From: Octopus sinensis
Lineage: Eukaryota
DNA: 33,724 nt
NCBI RefSeq assembly: GCF_006345805.1
Contig: NW_021831971.1
Coordinates: forward strand, 1 to 33,724
Direction: 5' to 3'
Both the position numbers and the translations under genes were made by a program. The notes beneath the pieces were generated by a model that was given only the letters and a program-made list of their open reading frames with translations, did no database searches and had not been told where the DNA came from. Shown one piece after another: positions 6,986 to 32,487 of this stretch; positions within the stretch are counted from its first letter, which is position 1; each line of letters opens with the position of its first letter.

Positions 6986-6989
6986 CATA

Positions 6990-7012
6990 CTATATATATA
7001 TATAATATATAT

Positions 7013-7058
<46 letters not shown>

Positions 7059-7243: not shown

Positions 7244-7604
7244 TAGAATAATACAGAAACATGTGGTCAGAAAATGTTTCTAATTTTTCCTTTCCACAAA
7301 CTACACGACACAAGTGAGATTGAAAGAAAGTTGAAATAAAAATGGTTTATTAAAATGTTCGAACCTGTTCTGAATGGAAAGACATTTAAAAATAATATGA
7401 CAACCAGTTAATGATGTGGATTAAAAAAATATCTGTAACATATGAATATAAGCAAATTACAGAATATCGGTACACCTGGCAAACCGTGCTGTTTAAGTTG
7501 CATGCAGATTGGTCAAAACCATATTCCATAAATTCAGTTTGTTGGAGCGTTGTAAGAGATACTACAGTTGTCAAGAACTCAACTGTCAGTTAAATACATT
7601 TTGA

Positions 7605-7642
7605 AATCTGATGATTACTACGGACGTATGAAAGCGCTAATT
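7605..7642 (+). ncRNA. Minimal type I hammerhead ribozyme candidate
   Basis: aat-CTGATGA-ttactacggacgtat-GAAA-gcgc-TA-att. Helix III is the palindrome AGCGCT; helices I and II are weak (3 bp). Lies ~90 bp upstream of a (TA)n tract. Confidence 0.6.
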
Positions 7643-7750
7643 GAACTTTATGAACATTGCAAAATATTTTTTTAATGTTAACATACTATAATAAAAAAGT
7701 GAAAACCTGACCGTGTTTTTACTTTATCCTATCATATATATATATATATA

Positions 7751-8626
7751 AGTCAGTAAATGGTGGGGTTGTGTTAACCGCACGTGGAAAAATGATAGGA
7801 GAGGAAAAATTATAAGGCAGAATGCTAAATTGAAAGTAAATTTTAATAAAAACGGATGTATGGAAAATTAAAAAAGAAAAAATAATAAATCAAAGCGGTT
7901 TTCATTGTAAGGCAAATTTTCAAGATTTGGAAGAGGAAAAGAATTTTTTTTTTTAAATTGAGGAAGGGGAGAAAAGAAATTTACAATGTTTTTTCAAAAA
8001 AATAATAATACATATATACAAAAATTAATAAATAAGTATACCAATCCATTGTAGAGTCTTTATGCTTTTAGAGTTCAATAATAGTCCTTCGAAAAATTTC
8101 TTTGGAGGATTAGGATGCATGTGCTTAAATGTAGTATTTAGTTTAAAGGGTTGGGTGAATGTGTGTCAAAACAGGAAATGGGGTGGGAGTTATCCAGATC
8201 CTGTGAGTAAGGGGAGACAATTCTGTGGATTTTATACTCTTTAATTGGAATGATGGATTTTTTTGTCAAACAGGATGCTTATAAATTTTGAATATATATG
8301 TATATTAAAAATTTGGAATATTTTCCAAGGACTATTATTGAACTCTAAAATCATAAAGACACTACAATGTATTGGTATGCTTATTTATTAATTTTTGTAT
8401 ATGTGTATTGTTATTTTTTTGAAAAAACGAAAAAAACATTGTAAATTTCTTTTCTCCCCTTCCTCAATTTAAAAACAAAAATTTCTTTTCCTCTTCCAAA
8501 TCTTGAAAATTTGCCTTACAATGAAAACCGCTTTGATTTATTATTTTTTCTTTTTTAATTTTCCATACACCCATTTTTATTAAAATTTACTTTCAATTTA
8601 GCATTCTGCCTTATAATTTTTCCTCT

Positions 8627-8631
<5 letters not shown>
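7751..8631 (-). mobile_element. Fold-back element in (TA)n with ~300-bp inverted arms, probably Penelope-like
   Basis: 7795-8095 is an imperfect reverse complement of 8321-8631, with a 225-bp spacer and an unpaired tail at 7751-7794. HHR-like motif in each arm (7887-7928 minus, 8498-8539 plus). Confidence 0.7.
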
Positions 8632-8663
<32 letters not shown>

Positions 8664-10303
8664 GAGATTCAGTTGAATTAGATATTTAAGTTGAAGTACC
8701 AAGTCAGTCCGGTATTATCCGCACAGCTCGAAGTAAGGTGAATAAAATCAAAATAAGCAGCAGGATATCAAGTTGTAATGCAGTACGACCGTTGCGGCTC
8801 CATTTAATTGAACAATGCAATCATTACATTAATTTAAATGCAGTGTTATCTTTAGCTGCACAAATAAATAAATGGAATTTTAACAAGTAGGACACACTAA
8901 TATGATTTTTCTTAAATATTTTAACTGAGCAAGATGATGGAAGAAATTCCTGTTGTCGCTATTGTAGCTAAGAATAGCCTACAACTTCTACGAATAGCAT
9001 GGAGAATAGTGGGGTCATGGGGTTTTAAGGATTGTAATTAATTTCTAATTCATTTATCTCTTTATCAACTACTAAAACTAAGACTAGAAGTCTATGTCTA
9101 TTTTTAATAAAGGATAAGAGTGAGTTGACTGTTCAATGTTGACGAAGGAATAAAGTTTCTGTACGACCAGATAACCATGATCTATCAAAAGCATGCTCCA
9201 TACAAACATCCCTATTTCCGCAAAAATCTGATTCCACAAGATAGACGGATACCAATACGTAACAGAAACAAGGGGACAAAACAATTAATGAACTTAATTC
9301 TCTCTATAAACCAGACTGCAAAGAAAAAATAAGAAAATAAGGAACATTGAACTAGACCTCAAAATTTATTATGAAAAAGAAACTTCGCTAAGGGAACACC
9401 GAACAGTGGAAAATATAACAAAAAAAAAAACTAATTTGAAGCTCTTTTTCCACTTTGCTAAACAAAAATCTTCAACACATAACCAGATCGACCCACTAAT
9501 GGACCATAATGGATCAGATGCTAAGGATTCGTCACAGATATGGACACCCTTGAGTCAACACTACAACAATGCTTTCTCTCAACCTATGATTGGCAACAGA
9601 GTGCATAATCCAAGGGAATTCTTCGATCCCCAGAATTCAACTACGCAGACACATCTAGAGATTCTAGATATTAGGAAAGAAGACGTAGTTACGGCTATTA
9701 AAGACCTAGATTCAAATTCAGCACCAGGGCCAGATGGTTTCCCGGCCATACTATTGAAAACTTGTAAAAACAAGCTCGCCAAGCCATTGAAGTAACTATT
9801 TCAAAAGTCGCTTGAAACCGGCATATTTCCAGAACTATTGAAAGAAGCAACAGTAAGACCTACCCATGACGGAGGTAGCAGGGCTGAAGCTAAAAATCCC
9901 AGACCCGTTTCTCTCACATCTCACACATCTAAAACTGTAGAACACGTTTTCCAAAACAGAATAGCTGCATATCTTGAGGAAAACAACCTCTTAGATAATA
10001 CACAGCATGGTTTTCGGACTGGACGAGGTTGTCTGACACAACTATTACAACACCATAACACTATCCTCAATAATTTCCTGAATGGAAAAGGGCACTCACT
10101 GTATATACCTTGATTTTGCTAAAGCGTTTGACAAGATTGATCATGGAATCATCTGTCATAGGATAAGGGATCCTGGTATCATGGGAAAACTCAGAGAATG
10201 GCTCTTTGACTTCCTACAGGATAGGAATCAATCTGCTGCTGAAAACGGTTATCTCTCAGCAAAGTCATTCGTAATAAGTGGTATACCTCAGTGTGGTATA
10301 TAA

Positions 10304-10717
10304 GGCGGTGAGTTGGCAGACACGTTAGCGCGCCGGGCGAAATGCTTAGCGGTATTTCGTCTGCCGCTACGTTCTGAGTTCAAATTCCGCCGAGGTCGAC
10401 TTTGCCTTTCATCCTTTCGGGGTCGATAAATTAAGTACCAGTTATGCACTGGGGTCGATGTAATCGACTTAATACCTATGTCTGTCCTTGTTTGTCCCCT
10501 CTGTGTTTAGCCCCTTGTGGGTAATAAAGAAATAGGTATTTCGTCTACCGCTACGTTCTGAGTTTAAATTCCGCCAAGGTCGACTTTGCCTTTCATCCTT
10601 TCAAGTCGATTAAATAAGTACCAGTTACGCACTGGGGTCGATGTAATCGACTTAATCCGTTTGTCTGTCCTTGTTTGTTCCCTCTGTGTTTAGCCCCTTG
10701 TGGGTAGTAAAGAAATA
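10304..10717 (+). mobile_element. tRNA-derived SINE family B (Meta/MESC-like central domain), partial tandem dimer
   Basis: B-box gagttcaaattcc; domain gcctttcatcctttcggggtcgataaa. 15-bp TSD ggtatacctcagtgt at 10280-10294 and 10718-10732. Confidence 0.9.
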
Positions 10718-11101
10718 GGTATACCTCAGTGTACGGTTCTGGGACCATTATTATTTACCTTGACCCTATCAGGCATAAGCTCACAAGTGCAGTCGTCCAA
10801 CCTAATGAGTTACGCCGACGACACAAAAATATCAATGGCCATCCAGACTCCAGAAGATGCCATCACACTCCAAAATGACCTAAACACCATTTATCAATGG
10901 ACGGATAAAAATAATATGAAATTTGATACATCAAAATTTCAGGCCCTTCATTATGGAGGCAACTGACACAAATCCCAATATCCGGCCCCAGATAATATAA
11001 TGAACCAGGGCACTGACGATATACAGTTTTTAGGAACAACCATGCCAAATGATGCATCTTTTATCAGTCACATCAACAAACTGACCTCTAAATGCAGCTG
11101 C

Positions 11102-11740
11102 GGTTTTATATCTATCTGCGGCTTTATATAGCTATGGTAAGACCTCACCTGGAATTTGCATCACCGGTCTGGAACCCCTATCTTGCCCAGGATATTAATC
11201 GTCTGGAAGCCGTTCAGCGACGTGCAACCAAGAGAATACCCTCCATCAGGCATTTGCCATATCCTGAACGCCTTACTTCCCTGGGCATGGATACATTGAA
11301 ACTCCGACGTTTGGCAGCTGACTTGGCAAACACCCATAAAATTAATAACCATCGTACAAACAATAACTCTGAGCACCTTTTCAAACTCCACCCATCTAAC
11401 ACCCGTGGACATATTTACAAAGTCAGAAAACAGCACAGCTCCCATGACTTCAGGAAACATTTTTTCACGCTGAGAGTTGCTGAAGCATGGAACAAACTGC
11501 CGGCATCATTGTTAGTTGTCGGAGCACTGCATCCTTCAAAACTTCCATGCTTTCTGAGATTCTCCAACACTACACCTGATTTTCTCCCCTCCATACACAC
11601 GCAAGCATGTATCTGACTCATACATTGTTCGCTTTCCAGACATTTCTACATTACTGCATGTACTTTATATGCACTTTCTGACAAGTTGTGGTGCACCTGA
11701 GCACTGTATACAATAATTTCATTATCATATTATTATTTAT
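11102..11740 (+). mobile_element. 5'-truncated CR1-type LINE nested in the older LINE
   Basis: LYIAMVRPHLEFASPVWNPY..LEAVQRRATK..TRGH..FFTLRVAEAWNKLP and an (ATT)-like tail. The host frame resumes KCSC|LIGWTLRTF. Confidence 0.9.
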
Positions 11741-12660
11741 CTCATAGGATGGACCCTACGAACCTTCACGACAAGGGGACCGGTAGTTATGCTAACTCTA
11801 TGGAAAACCTTAGTTCTCAGCAGATTAGGTTACTGCTCACAGCTTTGGTCTCCAAATTCACCCGGTCTCATAGCAGAAATTGAAAGGTTACAAAGAAGAT
11901 TCGCCAGTAAAATAACTTCGGTTAATGGTCTTAATTACTGGGAACGCCTGAAAGCTTTGCGTCTCTACTCTCTTGAACACCGAAGAGAGAAATAGACTGT
12001 TATATCGGTATGGAAGATCCTGGAGGGGCAAGTTCCAAACATCGGCATTAAAGCGCATTTTAATGCTCGAACTGGTAGGTACTGCCAGCTTCCAGAGATA
12101 CCATCTTCAAATTCACGAGCAAAAACGCTCTACTGTACCAGTTTAATATTCAGAGATCCTCATGTATTCAACTGCTTACCCAAAGGAATTAGAAATATAA
12201 AGGGACCTCTACTGAAACTTCCCCCCCCCCAAAAAAAACAAACGAAAAAACTGATGCCGGAAAAACTGGGTTCTGCCCGTTACTGCCCCCTACACATCAC
12301 TTAAGGACCACTTCGTTGCAGGAGATTGAATTTAGTATAATATATACGCTATATTTGATGGTATAAAGTATTCACCGACGTATCAGACGCGCCCCAATTT
12401 CAGCGAATTTTCTCGAAAATGTTCAGTGCATCAAAGCATGTAATGTAAGTTTCACTTTGCATATAAGGCTTCCGGTCATTTTGTTTTATTTTGTTTTGTT
12501 TTGAAATACTTATTTAGGAAAAAATGCGAATTGATATAAAAATGTTATATAGACTTTACCAACAGTCCATGGGAAGTAACTCTAGAAAATAAATGCTATT
12601 ACCTGCGAGTTATTTCTCCTGAATACTTTATCAGATTAAAACGTGATTAAAATATATACC

Positions 12661-13154: not shown

Positions 13155-13381
13155 GGCGAGCTGGCAGAAACGTTAGCACGCCTGGCGAAATGCGTAGCCG
13201 TATTTCGTCTGTCGTTACGTTCTGAGTTCAAATTCCGCCGAGGTCGACTTTGCCTTTCATCCTTTCGGGGTCGATAAATTAAGTACCAGTTATGCACTGG
13301 GGTAGATGTAATCGACTTAATCCGTTTGTCTGTCCTTGTTTGTCCCCTCTGTGTTTAGCCCCTTGTGGGTAGTAAAGAAAT
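13155..13381 (+). mobile_element. SINE family B
   Basis: Near-identical to the 10304 monomer. TSD aggtattct at 13146-13154 and 13382-13390. Confidence 0.92.
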
Positions 13382-13803
13382 AGGTATTCTATAATGGCGA
13401 TATGACGCTGTTGTTATTGTGTGGTTGTTGTTGTTGTTATTATTGCTGTCGGCCTTTACTGAGCAAAACCATTTATCAAAAATAAGATGGCCGTTCCAAC
13501 CATAACCACCACGTCGATTGAAATGCGTTTATTACACTCGACATTATTCAACGTCTCTTTTAAAAAGACAACAACACGTAGTCCGTTAGGAATTTGGTTG
13601 CTATTTCTAGCTGGTCAATCATTCACAGACAGTTTGTTAGGTTGGTCTATGATGCTTATTACTTCATCTGTTCTGTGATGACAACATTTTATCCCAGTGA
13701 TTCGACTCATTGATGAGATGATTTGCATAAGAGAGGCGTAGCGTACCTCTCTATGGTACCTATTTGCTGCTAGGTAGATTGTACCTCATTGTGGTATCTG
13801 CTG

Positions 13804-15185: not shown

Positions 15186-15606
15186 TTTTTTTCTTTTCTT
15201 TTCTTATAGTAATAATTCTCTTTATCTGCAAAGTAATAGATTTTGTCTTCATCACGGAGTTCTGTACATGTTATTCCTTTTCTTGGACTAAGTTTCAACA
15301 ATTTGTTAAGAAAAGTATTGTCAATGAACTTACCTATTTCTCTACTACCCACAAGGGGCTAAACAGAGAGGACAAACAAGGACAGACAACCGGATTAAGT
15401 CGATTATATCGACCCCAGTGCGTATCTGGTACTTATTTAGTCGACCCCAAAAGGATGAAAGGCAAAGCCGACCTCGGTGGAATTTGAACTCAGAACGTAG
15501 CGGCAGACGAAATATCGCTAAGCATTTCTCCCGGCGTGCTTAACGATTCTGCCAGCTCGCCGTCTTTAATGAAGTTATATCTACCACTTAATATCACTGA
15601 TAACTT

Positions 15607-15660
<54 letters not shown>

Positions 15661-16086
15661 CCCTCTCTCTCTCTCTCTCTCTCTCCCTCTCCCTCCCTTC
15701 TTTTAGTTTTCGTTTAAGAGACTTTGGTCTTCCATCTCTTAGACACAACACGGGGGCAAACTGGTTAAACTTCTTGCACACAAACAATCATCTTCCTTCT
15801 CTCTCAAACTCTCCTTTGTTCTTCTCTCAACTTTTACTTTCCAGTCGAATCATTACTTAAAATACAGACATTATACTGAATGACTTGGTTTCTGGTTCTT
15901 CAATTGTCTCTGAGAACAATTCAAGCATGTGACTGAAGCCGAATTCACAGGCCAAGCATTTCCTTTATCTCAACGAACCGCCCCGGTTATCGCTGGACAT
16001 TCGTTCTCATCAAAATTGTGAAAATAACTTCATAAACATCATTGTGTTTTCCATAGTGTTTACTCTTGAAATCCCCAAGGACATAC
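15186..16086. repeat. Inverted duplicate of 25992-26909 (includes SINE B at 15335-15562 and (CT)n)
   Basis: Near-identical reverse complement, extending through non-SINE sequence. Confidence 0.92.
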
Positions 16087-16366
16087 AAACTCACACACAC
16101 ATAAATAGACAGACACACACATATGCATATGTAGCGAAGACTGTTCCTGGCTGGTTGTAATGCCATAGTTTCTTGTTGACGTCTTTTCTTGTCTTTCCAT
16201 TTCTCCCCTCTCTCTCTGTCACTCCTTTGTGTTCCCTCTTTTACGGTACGTCGCCATTCTCCGCGGTTGCCGGCAACTGCCTCTCAACCGCTAATATTGA
16301 TGTTACAGGCCTTCGCTACATATGCATATGTGTGTGTCTGTCTATTTATGTGTGTGTGAGTTTGTA

Positions 16367-16369
<3 letters not shown>
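16081..16369. repeat. 59-bp perfect inverted repeats flanking a locally inverted RTE fragment
   Basis: 16081-16139 is the reverse complement of 16311-16369. 16129-16314 is a direct copy of 25727-25912. Confidence 0.9.
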
Positions 16370-16436
<67 letters not shown>

Positions 16437-16739
16437 CACATATATATACACAGAGAGAGAATGAGCGAGAGAGAATCACGAAGCAGAGCTCTAAATAATA
16501 GGATGTAAATACTGGGTGGAAAAACGCTTTTTCATAGAAAAGTCGAGAGCCGTTTTCGATTTCTGTCAATGGCTGACGGATTGACGCCGCTGATCAAAGG
16601 GAAACAACTCATATCTCCCTTCTTTCGAAGCTTTTTAACACACTACGCACTAATTTTGATATCTTTCTTTCGTGGTCTGTTGCCCCTTAAACGAATTAAT
16701 TTGCATACTTCGAAATCTATATAAAATCCTTTGACGGGT

Positions 16740-16796
<57 letters not shown>

Positions 16797-16826
16797 GCGA
16801 GAAAGAAGCAACAAGAATGGATAGGT

Positions 16827-16917
16827 TTTTAGTACAATCGTTTCATACAAGGACAGGCTTTATTAAAAGTTGTAAAAATTACAGCATATAAACGTGTCCC
16901 GTACTCATCAGCTAAAA
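16827..16917 (-). ncRNA. Type I hammerhead ribozyme with extended helix II (mirror copy)
   Basis: Reverse complement of 19974-20064. Confidence 0.88.
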
Positions 16918-19900
16918 TACATGTGAGTTCTCTAGACATCCTAGTGGTTGAGGCTATACTCATGAAGTAATGTAGATAATTAAGTAACATAAACAGATTT
17001 CCAAAATTCATTAAAATTCTTTAAAGATGATGTACAGTCTTATCACAGAATTTTAAAAAGGTTCTAATAGCATCACAGAGAAGTGACCTAATCCATAGAG
17101 CACATATGAATTTCCAGAGATATGATGAGGGATTACATACTCACAGAAGACAAATTTATCCATTGTTAATCACAACGAGGTGGGTCTCAATTCCTGCTTA
17201 TTAGCATTACAGAGAGGGTGAATTAATCCTTGTATAGATGCACAATTTCCAATGGTGTAGATGTAAGTTTCCAGAGAAATGAAGAGGAATTTCATATTCA
17301 CAGGCGATAAGTTTATCAATGGTTGAACACAATGAGGTAGGTATCAGTTCTTGTTATATGATTAGGTATTTGCCACATTAATCACATTACTGCTATTTAC
17401 AAGAGGCTGTAGCTATTTAACTTATAAAGGCTGAAGGGCCTTCTGGAGAGGCCAAGAATAGAAAGGGAAGGGAATAGAAGAAAAGAGAGGAAATAAGGGA
17501 GGAGGGAGCAAAAAAAAGGGGGGAGGAAGGGGACTAAAAGAGAAGAGAGAAAAGGAAAAAGAGAATAAGAAGAAGAAACAGAAAAAAGAGAAGAGAGAAA
17601 GAATAGGGAAAGAAGGGAAAAAAATAAAAATAAAAAAGAGGGTTCTAGTTATCCAGAAGAATTAGTAGACGGCAAGTCTGGTTTTAATTTACAGGCATCT
17701 AGGAACTAGAGGAGAATATTATTCTTTGGCCAGTAAAACAGTTAATTTATTGCTGTTGAAATCAGCTATGAATTTAAAGAGAATCTAAAGAGATAACACA
17801 GTCAGGGGTTTAGGGGTCAGATGCTAAAATCAAAAGAAAATACATTATGAAAATCTAAGTATAATCTTATCAAAAAGTCAATAAAACTTACTTATTTAAT
17901 TTATTCATTTTATTGTCTTAAGGAGTTGCCATTATTATTCATACATTGACGGACTACAGGTCAAATCTTAGAAGATCATTTATAAGGTGTTAGGGGATTG
18001 TCTATCATAATGAAGATAATCATATTATCACCGAGGGGGTAGCCTTATTTATTTAATTTTGAAATAGAATTATGGGGCTATAGTATCTCATTTTATTTTA
18101 TTAGAGTTATGCTACTTAAATTAGATTAAGTTAGGAATTAAAATTAAGTTAGGAATTAAAATTAAAAATTACAATTAAGATTTAAAATTAAGAATTTAAA
18201 AGATTATGAGTTTGAAATTAGATAAAGCCTAAATTAAGCAGCGTATAAGTACTATTCATTTCCCTGTTCTCAAAAAACTGATGCAGATATAAGGAAAAAG
18301 ATAACTGTGGTGTGAGAACTCTTAGTTATCTACTTAAAGCAGTGCTATACTAGTAGAAGTCAAGTTATATCTATCTATCTAGTTACGGATGTTCTAATCA
18401 TTTAAAATATTTTAAAGTCTTCAATTTAGCGTGGACACAAACTTGACCTAGTTCGATATGATTATTCAATAAGTTGAATATTTTAAATGATTAGAACATC
18501 CGTAACTAGATAGATAGATATAACTTGACTTCTACTAGTATAGCACTGCTTTAAGTAGATAACTAAGAGTTCTCACACCACAGTTATCTTTTTCCTTATA
18601 TCTGCATCAGTTTTTTGAGAACAGGGAAATGAATAGTACTTATACGCTGCTTAATTTAGGCTTTATCTAATTTCAAACTCATAATCTTTTAAATTCTTAA
18701 TTTTAAATCTTAATTGTAATTTTTAATTTTAATTCCTAACTTAATTTTAATTCCTAACTTAATCTAATTTAAGTAGCATAACTCTAATAAAATAAAATGA
18801 GATACTATAGCCCCATAATTCTATTTCAAAATTAAATAAATAAGGCTACCCCCTCGGTGATAATATGATTATCTTCATTATGATAGACAATCCCCTAACA
18901 CCTTATAAATGATCTTCTAAGATTTGACCTGTAGTCCGTCAATGTATGAATAATAATGGCAACTCCTTAAGACAATAAAATGAATAAATTAAATAAGTAA
19001 GTTTTATTGACTTTTTGATAAGATTATACTTAGATTTTCATAATGTATTTTCTTTTGATTTTAGCATCTGACCCCTAAACCCCTGACTGTGTTATCTCTT
19101 TAGATTCTCTTTAAATTCATAGCTGATTTCAACAGCAATAAATTAACTGTTTTACTGGCCAAAGAATAATATTCTCCTCTAGTTCCTAGATGCCTGTAAA
19201 TTAAAACCAGACTTGCCGTCTACTAATTCTTCTGGATAACTAGAACCCTCTTTTTTATTTTTATTTTTTTCCCTTCTTTCCCTATTTCTTTCTCTCTTCT
19301 CTTTTTTCTGTTTCTTCTTCTTATTCTCTTTTTCCTTTTCTCTCTTCTCTTTTAGTCCCCTTCCTCCCCCCTTTTTTTTGCTCCCTCCTCCCTTATTTCC
19401 TCTCTTTTCTTCTATTCCCTTCCCTTTCTATTCTTGGCCTCTCCAGAAGGCCCTTCAGCCTTTATAAGTTAAATAGCTACAGCCTCTTGTAAATAGCAGT
19501 AATGTGATTAATGTGGCAAATACCTAATCATATAACAAGAACTGATACCTACCTCATTGTGTTCAACCATTGATAAACTTATCGCCTGTGAATATGAAAT
19601 TCCTCTTCATTTCTCTGGAAACTTACATCTACACCATTGGAAATTGTGCATCTATACAAAGGATTAATTCACCCTCTCTGTAATGCTAATAAGCAGGAAT
19701 TGAGACCCACCTCGTTGTGATTAACAATGGATAAATTTGTCTTCTGTGAGTATGTAATCCCTCATCATATCTCTGGAAATTCATATGTGCTCTATGGATT
19801 AGGTCACCTTCTCTGTGATGCTATTAGAACCTTTTTAAAATTCTGTGATAAGACTGTACATCATCTTTAAAGAATTTTAATGAATTTTGGAAATCTGTTT

Positions 19901-19973
19901 ATGTTACTTAATTATCTACATTACTTCATGAGTATAGCCTCAACCACTAGGATGTCTAGAGAACTCACATGTA

Positions 19974-20064
19974 TTTTAGCTGATGAGTACGGGACACGTT
20001 TATATGCTGTAATTTTTACAACTTTTAATAAAGCCTGTCCTTGTATGAAACGATTGTACTAAAA
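19974..20064 (+). ncRNA. Type I hammerhead ribozyme with extended helix II
   Basis: ttttag-CTGATGA-gtacgggaca...tgtccttgtat-GAAAC-gatt-GTA-ctaaaa. Perfect 6-bp helix I, intact core, predicted cut after 20058. Confidence 0.88.
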
Positions 20065-20207
20065 ACCTATCCATTCTTGTTGCTTCTTCTCGCTTATAAT
20101 CACCCCACATTACTGTATTGTTAAAACAGTATAGTTTGTTTTTGGTGCATCTAAGTTAGGTACCATATTCAAGTAAATTCATTTAAATTAACTTGAATCT
20201 TTATTGC

Positions 20208-20246
<39 letters not shown>

Positions 20247-20313
20247 TTTATAAGTGGATAAATCAGTGTATTGGCTTTAGAATAACCCTCTTTAGCCCTT
20301 AATTATATGATAT

Positions 20314-20410
<97 letters not shown>

Positions 20411-20693
20411 GTATGATGTATGTATGTATGTATGTATGTATGTATATATAATTATAACAATAATTTACAAATATTGTTGTCTGTGGAGACATATTTTTGT
20501 AGAAAAAGGAAATAGTAGTCTTTTGGCTGCTATTTCTAAAATTTTCGGTATGTGGTGAAGCAACTTGTTGCTAAACCCTTATTGTTATAATTATATATAA
20601 TAAAAAAAACTTTTTGTATAAGTTTTTACCGAAAAAATTCTAGGTGAAATTTGTTGATTTTATTAAATTAATTATCTTTCACCCTATATCTGT

Positions 20694-20763
<70 letters not shown>

Positions 20764-20770
20764 TATATAT

Positions 20771-21745
20771 AAAGAAGTAAATATATGGCACAACGAAGTA
20801 CCGATATTTACTGGAAATAGCGAACGTAATAATACGACGCTAATGTATAGCTTCACCGCGTATGTACTAGCAAAAATGCGTGAGTGCAACAAACTAGAAA
20901 AAATTGTCTTACCTCCAGGGAGAACATCTGAAAGATGAAATACCTAGAAAAGGATAATGTGGGACCGGAGCCGGTTTCAGATTTTTCAAGATATGTCTGC
21001 ACCCATAAAATTAATCTATCTTCATCAGCCAAACATATACCACGACAACATTTCAGATGTTACCACATTAATGCCAATACACTCGACTGAAACGCCGAAA
21101 CGCTAACAGCACGAGAACGGTGAAGAAGTTTCAATAAATTAGTAATGCAATACTAGAGTATTGGTTTCCAGTAAAGAATAGCCCGTGAGGGAAAAATATA
21201 CAAAGAAGTAAATATATGGCACAACGAAGTACCGATATTTACTGGAAATAACGAACGATATGTAAATGTAAAAAAATACAAACTGGGACAAGAACGTGAA
21301 ACATTTAGAAGACGATACAAAAAACACGGACGGGACATTCGAAGCCTTCAATCTTCAGTCAAGAACCGGATCATCTTCGCAATTTCGGCTGATTAATCTT
21401 GAGATTGCTCCGATCTGGCCAGCCCCAAAGGAAAATCTAAGCCAAGCGCATTAGATTCCTTGGAAGAAAGCCTCGTATGTATACAAAACAAGGACGGAAA
21501 AACGGACGATGTTACGCGAATAAGAATACAAAAAATACGTAAAAACAATAATGATAGCACGAATAAGAATACAAAAATACATAAAAACAATAATGATAAT
21601 AATAATAACAACAAAAACAGGACGTCACAGACAAGTGTCTTTTCGACAGGACGAGTAAATTTTTGAGCTGGCGTTAGAAGAAAGCCTTAGGGCTACAGAG
21701 AGACAAAAAAGTGTGTCTTGCCGCAACGGCTGCTGGCCACGAAGA
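20771..21745 (-). mobile_element. Non-coding repeat ending at (TA)n; 56-bp direct repeats (period 431) enclose a hammerhead
   Basis: 20771-20826 and 21202-21257 differ at one base. The upstream boundary is approximate. Confidence 0.55.
20957..21036 (-). ncRNA. Type I hammerhead ribozyme with full helix III
   Basis: atgtttgg-CTGATGA-agat...atct-GAA-accg(gctc)cggt-C-ccacat; canonical GUC triplet. Confidence 0.82.
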
Positions 21746-21749
21746 GGTT

Positions 21750-22375
21750 AGCAATCGAGGGTCTTCTTCAAACCGGCATACATCCCACAGGTGTCGCCAC
21801 TGTCAGCAGCTGACTTGATACTTTGACAGATTTCCTGCCAATACCTATTTGCACAGCGTCTGGCAGTCAGTTGGGTTTTATTTCTTGCCTTTCTGAGTTC
21901 TTCGAGTGACTTTGTAGAAGAATCACTCTTGTATTGCATCAGAGCTGCACACTTTGCTTCGATAACTGTTTCCAGCTCTGAGAGCCCAGCACTGAACAAA
22001 ATCTGGGTTTTGCCTTTCTCTCATGCCGAAAGTATCTATTGATGTGGTATACAAAGCTTCCCTTATATAATTCCACCTACTTTCAGCAGAGGAGGTTGGG
22101 CAGCTACTGAGGGCAACCTTGATGCAGGGCGGGTTCTGGGGGAGAGAGCAGATGCACGGTCCACAGAACGTGCCCTGGCAAGGGCGGTGTGGATAGTGGT
22201 GAGGGGATATCCATTTAGGATGAAGTGGTGAGCCAAGAGTTGAGACTCAGTCTCAAAGTCATGGTCGTCACTAAGCTAAGCTCCCTGTAATAGTGGAAGC
22301 AATGCCGTAGCGCTCACTGTGGGGCTGGTAGCTGTGGACAGTGAGCCCAACGGTGCCCAGAGCTTTGCCCATGAC
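21750..22375 (-). mobile_element. RTE LINE fragment (endonuclease-RT linker)
   Basis: LETVIEAK..LRKARNKTQLTARRCANRYWQEICQSIKSAADSGDTCGMYAGLKK. Paralogue at ~30340-30970 (+). Confidence 0.8.
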
Positions 22376-22377
22376 AC

Positions 22378-22479
22378 TCCATGAACCCTAAGTAAGGAAT
22401 TTGTAAAATTTGAATGAAATCGGTTCTCAAGTTTTAGGGTTTCACACAGACAGACAGACTCACATTCTCAGTTTTATAT
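22378..22479 (-). mobile_element. Helitron-like 5' fragment
   Basis: atataaaactgagaatgtgagtctgtctgtctgtg resembles the 5' end of the 5142-5634 element. No 3' hairpin or CTAG. Confidence 0.5.
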
Positions 22480-23585
22480 TGTTACGGAATCACCCGTCGT
22501 CGCCCGTCCCGAACGGCTCACACAAGTTCCGCCACGGAACCCAAAGAGGCGGAGAGAGGAGAGGAGAGATACAACAACAACCACAACCTCAGCACAGAGA
22601 TACAGAGGCACAACCCGAGACACAACCCAAAGAGGCAAGGCAACAACTGGCAACGCTGGCTTATATTCAAACAACAGTTTATACGACAATTACAATTGTT
22701 ACAACATCAAAGCATTTAAGGCAAACAACAAATCAATACATCATACGGTATACCACAGATCAAAGCATTTAACAACATGCATGTAACAATATAACAGTGT
22801 TCAGTAACGACACAACAAGTCCAGATCAAATAATGTTCACGATACGTCACAGTCCAATCAGAACACTTCGATACATTATACAATGTTCGTATCACAACAA
22901 TTCACGTTACAATTCAACAAGTCCTTTACTCAATTCACAATGTTCTTTATCGACTACATCGACAGAGTCCTTCTTTTTCTCTCTTCTTTCTCTTCTTTTC
23001 TTTTACATCGTGACACGTATCAATACACAATCACATACCTTAATTCCTAACTGAATCGCCAGTGTCCCATTCTGCACTCATCTCTCAATACTGCTAAATC
23101 CAGCCTGCCAAACTCCTGCATCCCAACTTGCTTGCTCCTAAGTTTCCACCTACTCGCTCTGATTTCCAGAATCCGACTGTCCTTCTTCGACGACCGACTC
23201 CAACTCCAAGATCCGTCTGTGTTCCTCGACGACCGCTCAACGACTGCCAAGACCTCACTTCGTCTCTGTCCTTCTTCCACTCCCCCATCTCCCTCTGTCT
23301 ATATCGCTCTTACCCTTTCTAACTGCCCTGGTCCTTATACCCTATCTATATCGCCTGCTGTCTCTTAGCCTTTCTATTTGCTATCTGATTCCTTACTCTA
23401 TCTATATCGCCTGCTGTCTCTTAGCCTCTCCATCCGTCCCCTACCGCTTATACCCTATCTCTATTTGCTCTCAGCCCTTAATCTGTCCCTTTTCTCTCAC
23501 ATTCTCCTGACCCTTTTCTCAACCGCACGAGGTCACAGGTCCTTCCAAAACCCATCAGTCCTCCATTAGACAAAAGACTGTCACA
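22480..23585. mobile_element. Probable solo LTR (~1.1 kb)
   Basis: Termini TGTTAC...GTCACA, non-coding, internal ~60-bp repeats (tctatatcgcctgctgtctcttagcc). No TSD found. Paralogue at ~29136-30237. Confidence 0.55.
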
Positions 23586-23750
23586 TTTTCACCAGACATG
23601 ATGGTGCCATAATTCCTAAGTGGGTCACCAGAAATGCACCTAGCCAACCGTAACAATATAAATAAAACAAGTAAAGGAATAAAAGAATAATTGTTTGGAC
23701 CGTGGGTGTACGGTGAGTAGCACGCATACAGAAACGTAGGTACATGTATG

Positions 23751-23751
<1 letters not shown>

Positions 23752-23819
<68 letters not shown>

Positions 23820-24190
23820 CATACATACATACATACATACATACATACATACATACATACATACGTACGTACGTGCGTATGTATGTACATACATGCATAC
23901 ATACGTACGTAAGTACGTAAGTACATGCATGTATACATACATACATACATACATACGTACGTACGTGCGTATGTATGTACATACATGCATACATACGTAC
24001 GTAAGTACATGCATGTATACATACATACATACATACATACATACATACATACATACATACATACATACATACATACAAGCACATATATAAATACATACGT
24101 ACGTACATACATACACACTTGCACACAAGCATATGTCCATTCTTACATACATACATATAAATACATACGTGTGTGTGTGTGCGCGCGCAC
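23752..24190. repeat. (TA)n/(TACA)n/(TACG)n compound microsatellite
   Basis: Direct reading; paralogue at 28630-28968. Confidence 0.95.
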
Positions 24191-24217
24191 ACTGCCACTT
24201 TCTTCCGAATCTTTCTG

Positions 24218-24340
24218 TTCAAAGTTCAAATAGCGCGGGAGTCAATTTCGTTTTTCATTCTTTAGAGGTCGACCAAATAAAGGATCGGTCGGCCAGTGTT
24301 GTCGACGGCGTCGGTGAATCCACTCGCCTCAAATTTGCCT
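24218..24340 (+). mobile_element. Old degenerate SINE B-related fragment
   Basis: aagttcaaatagcgcgggagtcaatttcgtttttcattctttagaggtcgacc aligns by eye with the family B core. Confidence 0.5.
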
Positions 24341-25198
24341 GAATCTAAATCAGAACCATTCAAAATATTATTACATCATATTGGCATTTGTTATTTGTTT
24401 TGTTTCAACCGACGTCTGAAGTGGGAATCCACGGTTGATAGGACAGGAAAATTTGCAGAAGATTGTCTGCTGGTTTCGTATTTCTGTTTCGTGTCCTTAA
24501 AGAACTGCTGAAAAGAATGACTCCATGGACGCTGCCTGGAATGGATTTATTGCCGAAAGCAAAACGGACAGCTTTTATGTATTCGTCCACTCTGCTGCCT
24601 CTTTAATGCTGAGATTGGCAACAGAGAGATGTCATCAGAAATAAAATTTACTTTTTATTGTTAGTCTATCATAATCGACATCGTTCTTCTCCCCAGCTCA
24701 GTCGACTAAAGACGACAAAACTATAGCTGTATAATCGTATGGAGTGTATCCTGAAGAATAATCAGTCGTAGAGAACTGTTGATTAATGAGTAAAGATTGG
24801 CAAGGCAATATACTGTGATTTATTGATAAGGAAACGGATCTTTTCATTTTGAAGGCCAGATTTTCCTAGTTAACTAAACAATTTGAAACTTCGTATACTG
24901 GTAGAATGTGTCAAAAGAAAACATAATTGTAAACCAAAATGAAAACGGAATTGTAATTTCTAAGTTTAACGTTGTTTAATAATTCGAATTTTAACCAATG
25001 GTATTCTTTCTTTCGACTTCATATCATTTACTGCCTCTCAAAATATTGTTACTGTGACGTTAACATGCAACATGGCTGTACGGTAATATTCTAGCGCCAT
25101 ATTTTAAAGAATATATTGAAGAACCTTGTAAGCTTCCTTCAGTGGCAAATGTTTCCTCAAATTTACAAGTAAATGTTTTCCAATATTTCTGGAATGCA

Positions 25199-25415
25199 AG
25201 GCGGTGAACTGGCAAAAAGGATTGGCCCGCTAGGCAACACGCTTGGCGGCATTTCTTTCGTCTTTACGCTTTGAGTTCAAATTCCGCCGAGGTCGACTTT
25301 GCCTTTCATTCTTTTGGGATCGATAAAATAAGTACTATTTGAGCACTGGGGGTCGGTGCAATCAACTTAACCGTCTCCCATGAAATTGTTGGCTTTGAGT
25401 CAAAATTTGAAACCA
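25199..25415 (+). mobile_element. Divergent SINE B-related copy
   Basis: ggcggtgaactggcaaaa...gagttcaaattccgccgaggtcgactttgcctttcat, with a different 3' part. Confidence 0.8.
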
Positions 25416-25578
25416 ATAATTCTGAGATATGCTTTATTCTGAGAAGGAAGCACATCCAGTCTTGGTTGAATTTTAAAGTGATAGCAATGGCTGATGAGAG
25501 GAAACAATAAATCACGTTCTGAAGACGTCTGCTTTCTGTCTACATGAAGTCTTTCAGTACACAGTAATCATTTCAAGA

Positions 25579-26009
25579 GTTGTTGGCATCCTTCTTGTCT
25601 CGGGAGACAATGGAGTTGCGCATAAAATAGTCTAGTTCGGCTTTTACATTTCATGTCCTGATACATTTCCTGCTGTGGATGTGTAGTCCTATCCTGGACA
25701 AACACTCCCTCTGGCAGGTACCGCAAATGTAGCGAAGACTGTTCCTGGCTGGTTGTAATGCCATAGTTTCTTGTTGACGTCTTTTCTTGTCTTTCCATTT
25801 CTCCCCTCTCTCTCTGTCACTCCTTTGTGTTCCCTCTTTTACGGTACGTCGCCATTCTCCGCGGTTGCCGGCAACTGCCTCTCAACCGCTAATATTGATG
25901 TTGCAGGCCTTCATGTCTCTTTTGCAAACATCCTTTTATCGTAAGAACGGTCTACCCACAGACCTAGTACCCCTAGCAAGCTCTCCGTAGAGTATGTCCT
26001 TGGGGATTT
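25579..26009 (-). mobile_element. RTE LINE 3' end
   Basis: IPKDILYGELARGTRSVGRP..KDVCKRDMKAC..CGTCQRECLSRIGLHIHSRKC*; 3'UTR ccattgtctcccgagac...ccaacaac. Confidence 0.9.
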
Positions 26010-26411
26010 CAAGAGTAAACACTATGGAAAACACAATGATGTTTATGAAGTTATTTTCACAATTTTGATGAGAACGAATGTCCAGCGATAACCGGGGCGG
26101 TTCGTTGAGATAAAGGAAATGCTTGGCCTGTGAATTCGGCTTCAGTCACATGCTTGAATTGTTCTCAGAGACAATTGAAGAACCAGAAACCAAGTCATTC
26201 AGTATAATGTCTGTATTTTAAGTAATGATTCGACTGGAAAGTAAAAGTTGAGAGAAGAACAAAGGAGAGTTTGAGAGAGAAGGAAGATGATTGTTTGTGT
26301 GCAAGAAGTTTAACCCGTTGCCCCCGTGTGTGTCTAAGAGATGGAAGACCAAAGTCTCTTAAATAAAAACTAAAAGAGGGAGGGAGAGGGAGAGGGAGAG
26401 AGAGAGAAGAG

Positions 26412-26484
<73 letters not shown>

Positions 26485-26530
26485 AAGTTATCAGTGATAT
26501 TAAGTGGTAGATATAACTTCATTAAAAGAC

Positions 26531-26760
26531 GGCGAGCTGGCAGAATCGTTAAGCACGCCGGGAAATGCTTAGCGATATTTCGTCTGCCGCTACGTTCTGA
26601 GTTCAAATTCCACCGAGGTCGGCTTTGCCTTTCATCCTTTTTGGGGTCGACTAAATAAGTACCAGATACGCACTGGGGGTCGATATAATCGACTTAATTA
26701 TCCGGTTGTCTGTCCTTGTTTGTCCTCTCTGTTTAGCCCCTTGTGGGTAGTAGAGAAATA
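26531..26760 (+). mobile_element. SINE family B (paralogue of 15335-15562)
   Basis: Sequence match. Confidence 0.9.
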
Positions 26761-26910
26761 GGTAAGTTCATTGACAATACTTTTCTTAACAAATTGTTGA
26801 AACTTAGTCCAAGAAAAGGAATAACATGTACAGAACTCCGTGATGAAGACAAAATCTATTACTTTGCAGATAAAGAGAATTATTACTATAAGAAAAGAAA
26901 AGAAAAAAAG

Positions 26911-27316
26911 GGCGGCGAGCTGGCAGAAACGTTAGCGCGCCGGGCTGAATGCTTAGCGGTATTTCGTCTGTCTGAGTTCAAATTCCGGCGAGGTCGACTT
27001 TGCCTTTCATCCTTTCGGGGTCGATAAATAAAGTACCAGTTTCGCACTGGGGTCGATGTAATCGACTTAATCTGTTTGTCTGTCCTTGTTTGTCCTCTCT
27101 GTGTTTAGCCCCTTGTGGGTAGTAAAGAAATAGGTATTTCGTCTGCCGTTACGTTCTGAGTTCAAATTCCGCCGAGGTCGACTTTGCCTTTCATCCTTTC
27201 AGGGTCGATAAATAAAGTACCAGTTTCGCACTGGGGTCGATGTAATCGACTTAATCCGTTTGTCTGTCCTTGTTTGTCCCCTCTATGTTTAGCCCCTTGT
27301 GGGCAATTAAGAAATA
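26911..27316 (+). mobile_element. SINE family B, partial tandem dimer
   Basis: Second unit restarts at the internal ggtatttcgtc site, as at ~10536. Confidence 0.9.
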
Positions 27317-27590
27317 TATATATGGATGGATGGATAAATGGATGGATGTGTGCTTACGTTTAAACGTATGTACTTATATGTAATTATAGATGTATACAGG
27401 CTCATAAGGTGATTATGAATGAAGAGGCAAACGTTGCTAAACAATAACAACAACAACAAACAACCATTGACATCTTGTAGATATCCGGTTCATACACTCT
27501 TAAATTCGTTGTAGTAAGAAGTCCTCACAGGACAATCCTCTGTTCTCAAATATCCTCTCAATTGGTTCCACTTCCTACAACGAAAAACAG

Positions 27591-28101
27591 GATGTCATCG
27601 GATTAACTAATCGCTCGCCTTCCGTCTTGTCATTGTTGTCATGTCATCCGAATACAAAGAAACCCCCCAAACACCCTCACACACGCATGCATGATTATGT
27701 CTATACTTTTTACTCTTTTACTTGTTTCAGTCATTTGACTGGCGGCCATGCTGGATCACCGCCTTTAATCGAGTAACTCGACCCGGGACTTATTCTTTGT
27801 AAGCCCAGGACTTATTCTATCGGTCTCTTTGCCGAACCGCTAAGTGACAGGGACGTAAACACACCAGCCTCGGTTGTCAAGCAATGCTAGGGGGACAAAC
27901 ACAGACACAAACACACACACACACACACACATAATATTATACATATATACCAGGCTTCTTTCAGTTTCCGTCTACCAAATCCACTCACAAGGCTTGGTCG
28001 GCCCGGGGCTATAGCAGAAGACACTTGCCCAAGATGCCACGCAGTGGGACTGAACCCGGAACCATGTGGTTGGTTAGCAAGCTACTTACCACACAGCCAC
28101 T
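27591..28101 (-). repeat. Inverted duplicate of 33233-33724, including SINE A (27705-28101) clipped at its 5' end
   Basis: Match extends past the SINE into its flank, up to the window end. Confidence 0.88.
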
Positions 28102-31100
28102 GTGGATGTGTAGTCCTATCCTGGACAAACACTCCCTCTGGCAGGTACCGCAACAATAAAAAGTAAATTTTATTCTGATGACATCTCTCTGTTGCCAATC
28201 TCAGCATTAAAGAGGCAGCAGAGTGGACGAATACATAAAAGCTGTCCGTTTTTGCTTTCGGCAATAAATCCATTCCAGGCAGCGTCCATGGAGTCATTCT
28301 TTTTTCAGCAGTTCTTTAAAGGACACGAAACAGAAATACGAAACCAGCAGACAATCTTCTGCAAATTTTCCTGTCCTATCAACCGTGGATTCCCACTTCA
28401 GACGTCGGTTGAAACAAAACAATAACAAATGCCAATATGATGTAATAATATTTTGAATGGTTCTGATTTAGATTCAGGCAAATTTGAGGCGAGTGGATTC
28501 ACCGACGCCGTCGACAACACTGGCCGACCGATCCTTTATTTGGTCGACCTCTAAAGAATGAAAAACGAAATTGACTCCCGCGCTATTTGAACTTTGACCA
28601 GAAAGATTCGGAAGAAAGTGGCAGTGGTGCGCGCGCACACACACACACGTATGATTTATTTTTATGTATGTATGTAAGAATGGACATATGCTTGTGTGCA
28701 AGTGTGTATGTATGTACGTACGTATGTATTTATATATGTGCTTGTATGTATGTATGTATGTATGTATGTATGTATGTATGTATGTATGTATGTATGTATA
28801 CATGCATGTACTTACGTACTTACGTACGTATGTATGCATGTATGTACATACATACGCACGTACGTACGTACGTATGTATGTATGTATGTAGTGTAATGTA
28901 TGTATGTATGTATGTATGTATGTATGTACGTACGTATGTATGTATATATATATATATATATATATATTGCATACATGTACCTACGTTTCTGTATGCGTGC
29001 TACTCACCGTACACCCACGGTCCAAACAATTATTCTTTTATTCCTTTACTTGTTTTATTTATATTGTTACGGTTGGCTAGGTGCATTTCTGGTGACCCAC
29101 TTAGGAATTATGGCACCATCATGTCTGGTGAAAAATGTGACAGTCTTTTGTCTAATGGAGGACTGATGGGTTTTTGGAAGGACCTGTGACCTCGTGCGGT
29201 TGAGAAAGGGTCAGGAGAATGTGAGAGAAAAGGGACAGATTAGGGCTGAGAGCAAATAGAGATAGGGTATAAGCGGTAGGGGGACGGATGGAGAGGCTAA
29301 GAGACAGCAGGCGATATAGATAGAGTAAGGAATCAGATAGCAAATAGAAAGGCTAAGAGACAGCAGGCGATATAGATAGGGTATAAGGACCAGGGCAGTT
29401 AGAAAGGGTAAGAGCGATATAGACAGAGGGAGATGGGGAGTGGAAGAAGGACAGAGACGAAGTGAGGGTCTTGGCAGTCGTTGAGCGCGTTCGTCGAGGA
29501 ACACAACGGATCTTGGAGTTGGAGTCGGTCGTCTAAGAAGGACGTCGGATTTCTGGAAATCAGAGCGAGTAGGTGGAAACTTAGGAGCAAGCAAGTTGGA
29601 TGCAGGAGTTTGGCAGGCTGGATTTAGCAGTATTGAGAGATGAGTGCAGAATGGGACACTGGCGATTCAGTTAGGAATAAGGTATGTGATTGTGTATTGA
29701 TACGTGTCACGATGTAAAAGAAAAGAAGAGAAAAGAGAGAGAAAAGAAGGACTCTGTCGATGTAGTCGATAAAGAACATTGTGAATTGAGTAAAGGACTT
29801 GTTGAATTGTAACGTGAATTGTTGTGATACGAACATTGTATAATGTATCGAAGTGTTCTGATTGGACTGTGACGTATCGTGAACATTATTTGATCTGGAC
29901 TTGTTGTGTCGTTACTGAACACTGTTATATTGTTACATGCATGTTGTTAAATGCTTTGATCTGTGGTATACCGTATGATGTATTGATTTGTTGTTTGCCT
30001 TAAATGCTTTGATGTTGTAACAATTGTAATTGTCGTATAAACTGTTGTTTGAATATAAGCCCAGCGTTGCCAGTTGTTGCTTGCCTCTTTGGGTTGTGTC
30101 TCGGGTTGTGCTCTGTATCTCTGTGTTCTGAGGTTTGTGGTTGTTGTTGTATCTCTCCTCTCCTCTCTCCGCCTCTTTGGGTTCCGTGCGGAACTTGTGT
30201 GAGCCGTTCGGGACGGGCGACGACGGATTCCGTAACAATATAAAACTGAGAATGTGAGTCTGTCTGTCTGTGTGAAACCCTAAAACTTGAGAACCGATTT
30301 CATTCAAATTTTACAAATTCCTTACTTAGGGTCATGGAGTGTCATGGGCAAAGCTCTGGGCACCGTTGGGCTCACTGTCACAGCTAACCCGCCCCACAGT
30401 GAGCGCTACGGGGGATTGCTTCCACTATTACAGGGAGCTTAGCTTAGTGACGACCATGACTTTGAGACTGAGTCTCAACTCTTGGCTCACCACTTCCATC
30501 CTAAATGGATATCCCTCACCACTATCCACACCGCCCTTGCCAGGGCACGTTCCGTGGACCGTGCATCTGCTCTCTCCCCCAGAACCCGCCCTGCATTCAA
30601 GGTTGCCCTCAGTAGCTGCCCAACCTCCTCTGCTGAAAGTAGGTGGAATTATATAAGGGAAGCTTTGTATACCACATCAATGATAATTCGGCATGAGAGA
30701 AAGGCAAAAACCCAGATTTTGTTTCAGTGCTGGCTCTCAGAGCTGGAAACAGTTATCGAAGCAAAGTGTGCAGCTCTGATGCAATACAAGAGTGATTCTT
30801 CTACAAAGTCACTCGAAGACTCAGAAAGGCAAGAAATAAACCCAACTGACTGCCAGACGCTGTGGCAAATAGGTATTGGGCAGGAAATCTGTCAGAGTAT
30901 CAAGTCAGCTGCTGACAGTGGCGACACCTGTGGGATGTATGCCGTTTTGAAGAAGACCCTCGATTGCTAACCTCTTCTTCTCGTGGCCAGCAGCCGTTGC
31001 GGCAAGACCACTTTTTTTGTCTCTCTGTAGCCCTAAGGCTTTCTTCTAACGTCAGCTCAAAAATTTACTCGTCCTGTCGAAAAGACACTTGTCTGTGACG

Positions 31101-31687: not shown

Positions 31688-31765
31688 ATTTTGGCTGATG
31701 AAGATAGATTAATTTTATGGGTGCAGACATATCTTGAAAAATCTGAAACCGGCTCGGTCCCACAT
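31688..31765 (+). ncRNA. Paralogous copy of the 20957-21036 hammerhead
   Basis: tgg-CTGATGA-agat...atct-GAA-accg(gct)cggt-C-cca. Confidence 0.78.
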
Positions 31766-31944
31766 TATCCTTTTCTAGTATTTCATCTTTCAGATTTCTC
31801 CCTGGAGTAAGACAATTTTTTCTAGTTTGTTGCACTCACGCATTTTTGCTAGTACATACGCGAATGAAGCTATACATTAGCGTCGTATTATTACGTTCGC
31901 TATTTCCAGTAAATATCGTACTTCGTTGTGCCATATATTTACTT

Positions 31945-32000
<56 letters not shown>

Positions 32001-32275: not shown

Positions 32276-32344
<69 letters not shown>

Positions 32345-32440
32345 TATAATTAAGGGCTAAAGAAGGTTATTCTAAAGCCAATACACTGATTTATCCACTT
32401 ATAATCCGCATATATATATATATAATATATATATAATATA

Positions 32441-32487
<47 letters not shown>

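Follow-up and report, generated by a model that had tools for sequence, protein, structure and literature searches.

A palindromic insert of 3416 nt in Octopus sinensis (contig NW_021831971.1) is probably the product of one recent retrotransposition of a Penelope-like element (PLE), in which both strands of a cut (TA)n target were primed and two 5′-truncated copies were left head to head. The geometry of the insert, its empty site, a hammerhead motif, the repeated family to which the arms belong and two 3′ end points shared with other copies were observed directly, and the assignment to PLEs rests on the RNA motif, the layout and the target. The window mentioned throughout is the whole stretch of 33,724 nt that was analysed.

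Geometry of the palindrome and its empty site

The features of the locus are given below by their positions in the window, with X1, X2, X3 and X5 standing for public sequencing runs.

16743..16795, no strand: left (TA)n target tract, from a scan for TA tracts
16797..18411, minus strand: left arm, a 5′-truncated family copy with its 3′ end at 16797 directly abutting TA, from self-alignment; the same end point followed by TA is present in contigs of X1 (at least 14), X3 (at least 2) and X5 (at least 2)
16827..16917, minus strand: type I hammerhead motif of the left arm, identical to the right-arm copy, from a descriptor match
18412..18476, minus strand: spacer of 65 nt, further 5′ family sequence of the left copy, from contigs of X2 and X3
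18477..20093, plus strand: right arm, the second 5′-truncated copy, head to head with the left one, from self-alignment
19241..19435, plus strand: pyrimidine tract in the arm, 92% C+T, from composition; the summed depth steps up just 3′ of it in X1 and X2
19536..19780, plus strand: diverged internal direct repeat with a period of about 157 nt, 79% over 91 nt, without significant codon-position bias
19974..20064, plus strand: type I hammerhead motif of the right arm, from a descriptor match and a comparison by eye with File S2 of PMC8557442
20094..20212, plus strand: one-sided tail, 119 nt of family sequence with a hairpin near the tail end, from self-alignment and contigs
20212..20242, no strand: right (TA)n target tract, from a scan for TA tracts
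32410..32484, minus strand: empty site, a bare imperfect TA tract with flanks as at the filled site, within an inverted duplicate (28152-32900)

When the region 16740-18411 was globally aligned with the reverse complement of 18477-20250, no internal substitution was found between the arms, and each of the four one-base indels (16802/20088, 17083/19808, 17230/19660 and 17602/19287) fell in a homopolymer run, with two bases in one arm and three in the other. The left arm measures 1615 nt and the right arm 1617 nt. This alignment confirmed the near-perfect 3.3-kb palindrome with 1.6-kb arms reported in the preliminary description of the sequence, and the 65-nt spacer and the 119-nt tail on one side only were also recovered (18412-18476 and 20094-20212). 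At the central joint (18476/18477) one base fits neither side, and neither microhomology nor a palindrome was visible. Two smaller palindromes with the same layout were found elsewhere in the window (117 to about 510, and 7760-8628), one of them with diverged arms that differ by 10 substitutions in about 305 nt. Part of the identity between the long arms may come from polishing or gene conversion.

The flanks of the insert were found again, in inverted orientation, around the empty site. The left flank (16450-16745) and the reverse complement of 32484-32790 match at 286 positions, with 4 substitutions and 6 gaps, and the right flank (20240-20300) matches 32345-32412 at 59 of 61 positions; between these flanks there is an imperfect TA tract alone. 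Both versions of the site belong to an inverted duplicate of about 5 kb (16317-16795 plus 20212-24662 against 32900-28152), the copies of which differ, over 2.9 kb outside microsatellites, by 14 substitutions and 65 gaps. Such a predominance of indels resembles the consensus errors of long reads on two almost identical sequences, and the duplicate may be either genuine and young or a second haplotype that was joined on during assembly. In either case, to judge from these alignments, filled and empty versions of one site exist at a substitution divergence of about 0.5% or less. The empty site reported earlier within the window holds as a bare TA tract with the same flanks, but it may belong to a second haplotype instead of a paralogous locus. 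Of the two histories first offered for it, recent insertion is supported by the substitution-free arms and by the absence of a scar at the empty site, and excision is retained as a minor rival.

Hammerhead motif and coding content

The motif consists of a stem I of 6 bp, the core CUGAUGA, a 10-bp stem II that has a single bulge and a loop of 39 nt, the GAAA element and a stem III of 2 bp, the latter placed inside a nearly self-complementary 8-mer for which an intermolecular duplex of -5.8 kcal/mol was calculated. Cleavage is predicted after position 20058. Short palindromic stems III and weak, dimer-dependent cleavage are described for the hammerheads of metazoan PLEs (PMC4209133).

The search was carried out with a generic type I descriptor, composed after the motif had been seen. 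It matched at +19980 and -16911, in both cases with 7 consecutive pairs in stem II and 6 pairs in stem I, and at one further position in the window (-254), and gave no match in 2000 first-order Markov random sequences with the length and composition of the arm. In contrast, the Rfam models gave no match over the whole window at the gathering threshold. At E<=10, the 18 matches over 16700-20300 were far under gathering and mostly corresponded to miRNA models on TA tracts, with no hammerhead among them. Free folding of 19965-20075 did not form the hammerhead either (z 0.17). Thus, the terminal hammerheads proposed at the outset were located by the descriptor in both arms, as a motif that Rfam misses.

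No RT or GIY-YIG sequence was found in this copy, and the family continues 5′ of it, where an ORF could still lie. The longest stop-free frames in spacer, arm and tail span 63-82 aa, and three of these four are of low complexity. Protein searches covered part of the six frames, namely a 160-residue frame, with stops read as X, and one adjoining 47-residue piece. The 160-residue frame gave a single, sub-threshold match to Pfam and nothing among 39 candidate longer proteins, which is a weak test. Its one match among 1.84 billion representatives (E 6.6e-5) was a repetitive plant ARID-domain protein, matched through four repeats, and was discarded. The 157-nt internal repeat was also considered as a 45-aa coding repeat and rejected, as its substitutions were distributed over the three codon positions as 12, 13 and 16 (p 0.27).

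These results bear out the preliminary statement that no RT or GIY-YIG coding is recognisable in the 1.6 kb upstream of the hammerhead. No coding was detected over at least 1.5 kb on the 5′ side of the motif, and the family is therefore either non-autonomous or provided with a very long 3′ untranslated region, the two options that had been foreseen. We lean slightly towards a non-autonomous family over an autonomous one with a very long 3′ UTR. With no ORF and no 5′ end, this particular copy was likely dead on arrival.

The repeated family in public sequencing runs

Words from the arm were present at a fraction of 0.30-0.55 in 20 of the 24 public runs listed, which belong to four organisms and seven studies. 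None of these 24 is on record as an RNA run with the arm, which is evidence neither for nor against its transcription. Contigs of four of these runs were placed on 18380-20211 at 85% likeness, yielding 4769 (X1), 2414 (X2), 1055 (X3) and 161 (X5) contig records that covered all 30 bins in each run. The arm is not single-copy, as might have been feared, but belongs to a multi-copy family.

Summed contig depth, which is not copy number, was higher at the hammerhead than at the median of the 5′ plateau by 19.7-fold in X1, 6.1-fold in X2 and 9.0-fold in X3, and the ratio of tail to hammerhead depth was 0.46, 0.40 and 0.53, respectively. This gradient hints at 5′ truncation and at roughly one tail for every two arms; a similar one would be expected of a foldback DNA transposon family with internal deletions. 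The dip in X5 depth at the pyrimidine tract was considered as possible splicing across the tract and rejected, as no joint skips the tract and one contig spans its 3′ end.

The ends of the family were followed in the 24 loose contig ends listed out of 317. At 20088, at least 14 contigs of X1, at least 2 of X3 and at least 2 of X5 carry the end bases of the left arm and then enter TA, with a variable base at the join, and at least one contig of X1 enters TA at 20210. At the other extreme, at least one contig each in X2 and X3 has, before 18477, the reverse complement of the first 14 bases of the spacer, and at least 5 contigs of X2 and at least 3 of X3 leave for different sequence after 18475. 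Therefore, the spacer extends the left, minus-strand copy in the 5′ direction, the family reaches further 5′ than either copy, and the joint 18476/18477 is specific to this locus. In the same way, the tail continues the right copy. A search in the window for the 5′ continuation of the family gave one match with 2 mismatches, at chance level, and one 271-nt contig of X5 seemingly extends 133 nt beyond the tail end, according to its record coordinates.

No contig bridging the central joint was found among the 32 of 8447 pieces listed, so the joint is without independent support. Opposite-strand joints were detected at other positions, 18699/19110 in X3 and 19471/19624 in X5, in one contig each, and suggest other inverted copies.

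At 22 sites, chosen from the 40 of 120 window-versus-family difference rows listed, the window base is present in both arms but differs from that of most or all contigs. As the arms are identical to each other yet unlike the family majority at many sites, both come from the same source, which is a variant, at the level of a sub-family or a species, distinct from the majority in these runs. Neither the bias of transitions at these sites towards G/C (12, versus 5 towards A/T; p 0.14) nor that of T>C over A>G (9 versus 3; p 0.15) was significant.

Exact-pattern scans of metagenome contigs gave no match. The supplement of PMC8557442 contained no exact match to 17 short motifs (12 taken from the insert or derived from its hammerhead core, the other 5 belonging to further elements of the window), a search made weak by line breaks and divergence. 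No paper on the arm family was found in a literature search, and the family is called uncatalogued below in the sense of these literature and supplement searches.

Origin, relatives and possible transcripts of the insert

Each arm holds family sequence that is missing from the other, the left one having 65 nt more at its 5′ side and the right one 119 nt more at its 3′ side. Therefore, neither arm is a plain copy of the other, which argues against both a fold-back read chimera and a simple snap-back. In the sequence of events that we favour, a PLE RT-endonuclease supplied from elsewhere in the genome would nick both (TA)n strands. To give the left copy, one strand would prime at a start site about 35 nt past the hammerhead cut; the other would prime at a second start site, 119 nt further 3′, and give the right copy, which would bear the tail because of this more 3′ start. 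Both cDNAs would halt at a length of about 1.7 kb, with their end points 65 nt apart, and would then be joined end to end without visible microhomology.

Several observations stand against this account, namely that no RT or GIY-YIG was found, that Rfam does not score the hammerhead, that the tail is 119 nt long versus the 30-40 nt published for PLE tails in the sources cited here, and that at least 1.5 kb is non-coding.

It is unlikely that the second arm of the same PLE arose by snap-back, that is, by copying of a folded-back cDNA or by self-priming of an antisense RNA, with the spacer inverted later. Such a process would account directly for arm identity. Spacers between long inverted repeats can invert, and a flip of the spacer, by arm recombination or in assembly, weakens the argument for two primers. 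In its simple form, however, snap-back would leave both spacer and tail on the arm made first, whereas here the spacer lies on the left and the tail on the right. Self-priming has been proposed for head-to-head PLE repeats (PMC3846280), but the joint of the present insert holds no palindrome, unlike the cases cited for it in the relevant part of that paper.

The chance is small that both duplicates once carried the element and that one of them lost the palindrome cleanly between the two TA tracts, leaving the empty site. Long palindromes tend to be deleted, and a deletion between direct repeats on either side would produce a bare stretch of TA, which measures 75 nt at the empty site versus 53+31 at the filled one. 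Nevertheless, the absence of substitutions between the arms indicates a young insertion, and the empty site shows no scar. Such a deletion would leave the identity of the element unchanged.

An artefact of reads or assembly, in which a chimeric long read folded one copy back on itself or two repeat copies were mis-joined, is very improbable. It could be invoked because the region is repeat-rich with indel-dominated errors, because the locus sits in a larger inverted duplication of uncertain reality, and because no contig over the joint was found among the pieces listed. However, both outer flanks are correct by the empty site, each arm has family sequence absent from the other, both ends are family end points in other runs, and the layout recurs in two smaller palindromes of the window, of which one has diverged arms. 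A fold-back chimera had been judged unlikely from the start, and the arguments from the tail and the outer flanks stand; the spacer, then taken as unique, belongs to the family as the 5′ extension of the left copy.

Least credible of all is a DNA transposon of foldback type that inserts at TA, the arms being its very long terminal inverted repeats. It would fit the long near-perfect arms, the TA target, the lack of coding and the greatest depth at the outer end, but not a family-encoded tail outside one arm (so that the element is not bounded exactly by terminal inverted repeats), a spacer that simply prolongs the linear family sequence, a hammerhead motif of PLE format near each outer end, or inversion joints of other copies at other positions.

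Retrotransposition with priming of both strands can be compared with what is described for known elements. The insertion unit of EN+ PLEs consists of a pLTR, an adjacent inverted 5′-truncated copy and a one-sided tail (Arkhipova et al. 2013, PMC3846280; Craig et al. 2021, PMC8557442 Fig. 2), and the combination of (TA)n targeting, an inverted 5′-truncated copy and a tail at one end is typical of these elements (PMC8557442). The present insert likewise has a head-to-head inverted copy at its 5′ end (in arms and contigs), a tail confined to one end, a type I hammerhead motif close to its 3′ end, an interspersed multi-copy family with 5′ truncation (by summed contig depth) and an AT-rich or microsatellite target (TA on both sides, the empty site and the loose ends into TA). 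Every structural hallmark of EN+ PLEs examined was thus found in it. It differs in that its 1.6-kb arms hold no ORF remnant and a target-site duplication is unreadable inside (TA)n; unlike autonomous PLEs, this copy has no ORF for a telomerase-like RT and GIY-YIG endonuclease. The inverted-copy layout is already known, and what is unusual is the arm length, the non-coding body and the long tail.

Among PLEs, the Hydra clade is defined by an RT with DKT and RWK motifs, a CxCX5C linker and an EN without CCHH (Craig et al. 2021, PMC8557442). The (TA)n target and the type I hammerhead with a near-palindromic stem III close to the 3′ end are shared with its members Hydra-1_Obim and Penelope-13_HM, the latter of which has a 966-nt inverted 5′-truncated copy (PMC8557442), and the hammerhead layout fits the Hydra-clade table by eye (File S2 of the same paper). 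By contrast, Hydra elements are mostly shorter than 3 kb, and by eye their consensus ORF stops a few hundred nt before the hammerhead (PMC8557442), unlike the at least 1.5 kb of non-coding sequence upstream of it here; the 3′ end and hammerhead also differ by eye from those of Hydra-1_Obim.

Cleavage and extension of both target strands have been described in vitro for PAc, the Poseidon of Anolis carolinensis, where two internal RT start sites bound the tail downstream of the hammerhead (Frangieh et al. 2024, PMC11167929). In PAc these sites lie within the ORF start, whereas the tail described here has no ATG-led ORF. A non-coding stretch of 0.9-1.5 kb directly upstream of the 3′ pLTR is also reported for Pen1_Av of Adineta vaga (PMC3846280); there, as far as that source describes it, this spacer is copy-specific captured host DNA, unlike the stretch found here, which is common to many copies in three organisms. 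Animal non-LTR retrozymes, proposed as non-autonomous PLE derivatives (bioRxiv 10.64898/2026.07.22.740005; PMC7229834), are similarly non-coding with a type I hammerhead, but in the accounts cited they form head-to-tail tandem arrays with a hammerhead in each unit, whereas here two copies of a unit of at least 1.8 kb face each other head to head, and no tandem repetition of this unit was found at the locus.

A long dsRNA hairpin would be produced only if host transcription read through the insert. In such a transcript the antisense arm comes first and would pair with the hammerhead, for which the calculated energies were -5.5 kcal/mol for the fold of the putative ribozyme versus -152 kcal/mol for the duplex with its own antisense, and the ribozyme is therefore predicted to be silent. 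Thus, in the 1.6-kb dsRNA hairpin with a 3′ ribozyme first envisaged, the ribozyme would most likely be silenced.

Of the differences listed for X5, which is another sample and RNA by guess, 45 of 105 were A>G or T>C, versus 16/73, 18/78 and 18/82 in X1-X3 (Fisher p 0.003-0.007), with the other change types about level. This weak, family-level excess would fit A-to-I editing of family transcripts, could be mimicked by alleles and is not tied to this locus. As siRNAs from long inverted Penelope copies in Drosophila (PMC3681739) and repeat-directed editing in cephalopods (PMC9068888) have been described, by analogy a role for dsRNA is plausible, though not new. Penelope expansions are described in octopus and squid (PMC8967140).

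As a broader and rather doubtful proposal, the arms may represent an uncatalogued, high-copy and fully non-coding Penelope-like family with a unit of at least 2 kb, much longer than that of retrozymes, which would routinely insert as kilobase-scale perfect hairpins by priming both (TA)n strands, with RT starting at two fixed sites of two template RNAs. If so, its polymorphic insertions would create new sources of long dsRNA and new targets for ADAR hyper-editing genome-wide, and the spacer and tail geometry of many copies would provide a genomic test of two-primer versus snap-back integration of PLEs. How PLEs build inverted repeats is named as an open question in PMC8557442. The insert offers a large and clean test case, in which a spacer and a tail on opposite arms fit two priming events better than a simple snap-back, and a long non-coding mobile unit of this type would extend the size range of non-autonomous PLE derivatives.

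Palindromes between TA tracts

Besides the palindromic Penelope-like (PLE) insertion at 16797-20212, here called the main element, the following features were located in the window:

117 to ~510, small palindrome bounded by TA tracts
7245-7735, AT-rich stretch containing a hammerhead-like core, at 7608 (+)
7760-8628, inverted pair with a TA tract on either side

The arms of the small palindrome, of ~155 nt each, differ by 2 substitutions around a centre of 8 nt, and additional sequence is present on the right side only. Each arm carries a hammerhead motif; the one at 254 (-) matches the descriptor, a generic type I hammerhead pattern written after the motif of the main element had been seen, and the one at 308 (+) has one base changed. 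Their stem III 8-mer is identical to that of the main element. This palindrome represents a second PLE-like family, unrelated to the main element and sharing its layout.

The inverted pair has arms of ~305 nt with 10 substitutions, a centre of 225 nt and an extension of ~35 nt on the left side only. Motif scans revealed no hammerhead core in it, and no exact match to its motifs was found in the PMC8557442 supplement; by layout, the pair is Naiad-like. The core at 7608 (+), with a stem III that is palindromic by eye, lies ~90 nt ahead of a TA tract and does not satisfy the descriptor; the AT-rich stretch is possibly a further 5'-truncated PLE end.

The large inverted duplication

15186-32900, complex inverted duplication

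With the main insert excluded, 16317-24662 matches 32900-28152 in inverted orientation, a second inverted match relates 15186-16086 to 26909-25992, and 16125-16314 recurs as a direct repeat at 25723-25912. Most differences between the copies are indels. The duplication arose by template-switch rearrangement, or else the assembly has incorporated a haplotype here. Within 16076-16360, the 190-nt unit at 16125-16314 is flanked by inverted copies of a ~58-nt CA-rich segment, and unit and flanks fall exactly on the boundary of the large duplicate, the inverted copy of the main-element flanks; this arrangement looks like a template-switch scar. The duplicated block also holds a further pair of hammerhead-like cores, at 21028 (-) and 31695 (+), adjoining a TA tract, neither of which satisfies the descriptor.

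Other repeats and base bias of the right arm

3197-3879, 6578-7024, 9310-12304 and 21748-22246, open frames
10300-10720, 13155-13388, 15331-15566, 25190-25374 and 26523-27322, first abundant short interspersed repeat family
886-1627, 27591-28101 and 33222-33724, second such family

By eye, the open frames look like putative LINE reverse transcriptase and endonuclease fragments. One of the two short interspersed families has a tandem unit of 183-184 nt, and both are presumably typical octopus repeats.

Where the right arm of the main element (18477-20093, +) shows a near-fixed departure from the family majority, the base carried by most contigs of this family in four public runs, the window copy tilts to G/C (transitions 12 versus 5, not significant, counted on 22 near-fixed differences picked by hand among 40 of 120 difference rows). 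Of the 12, nine are sense-strand T-to-C changes. Such a tilt would be consistent with an antisense template that had undergone editing, or with GC-biased conversion from arm to arm.
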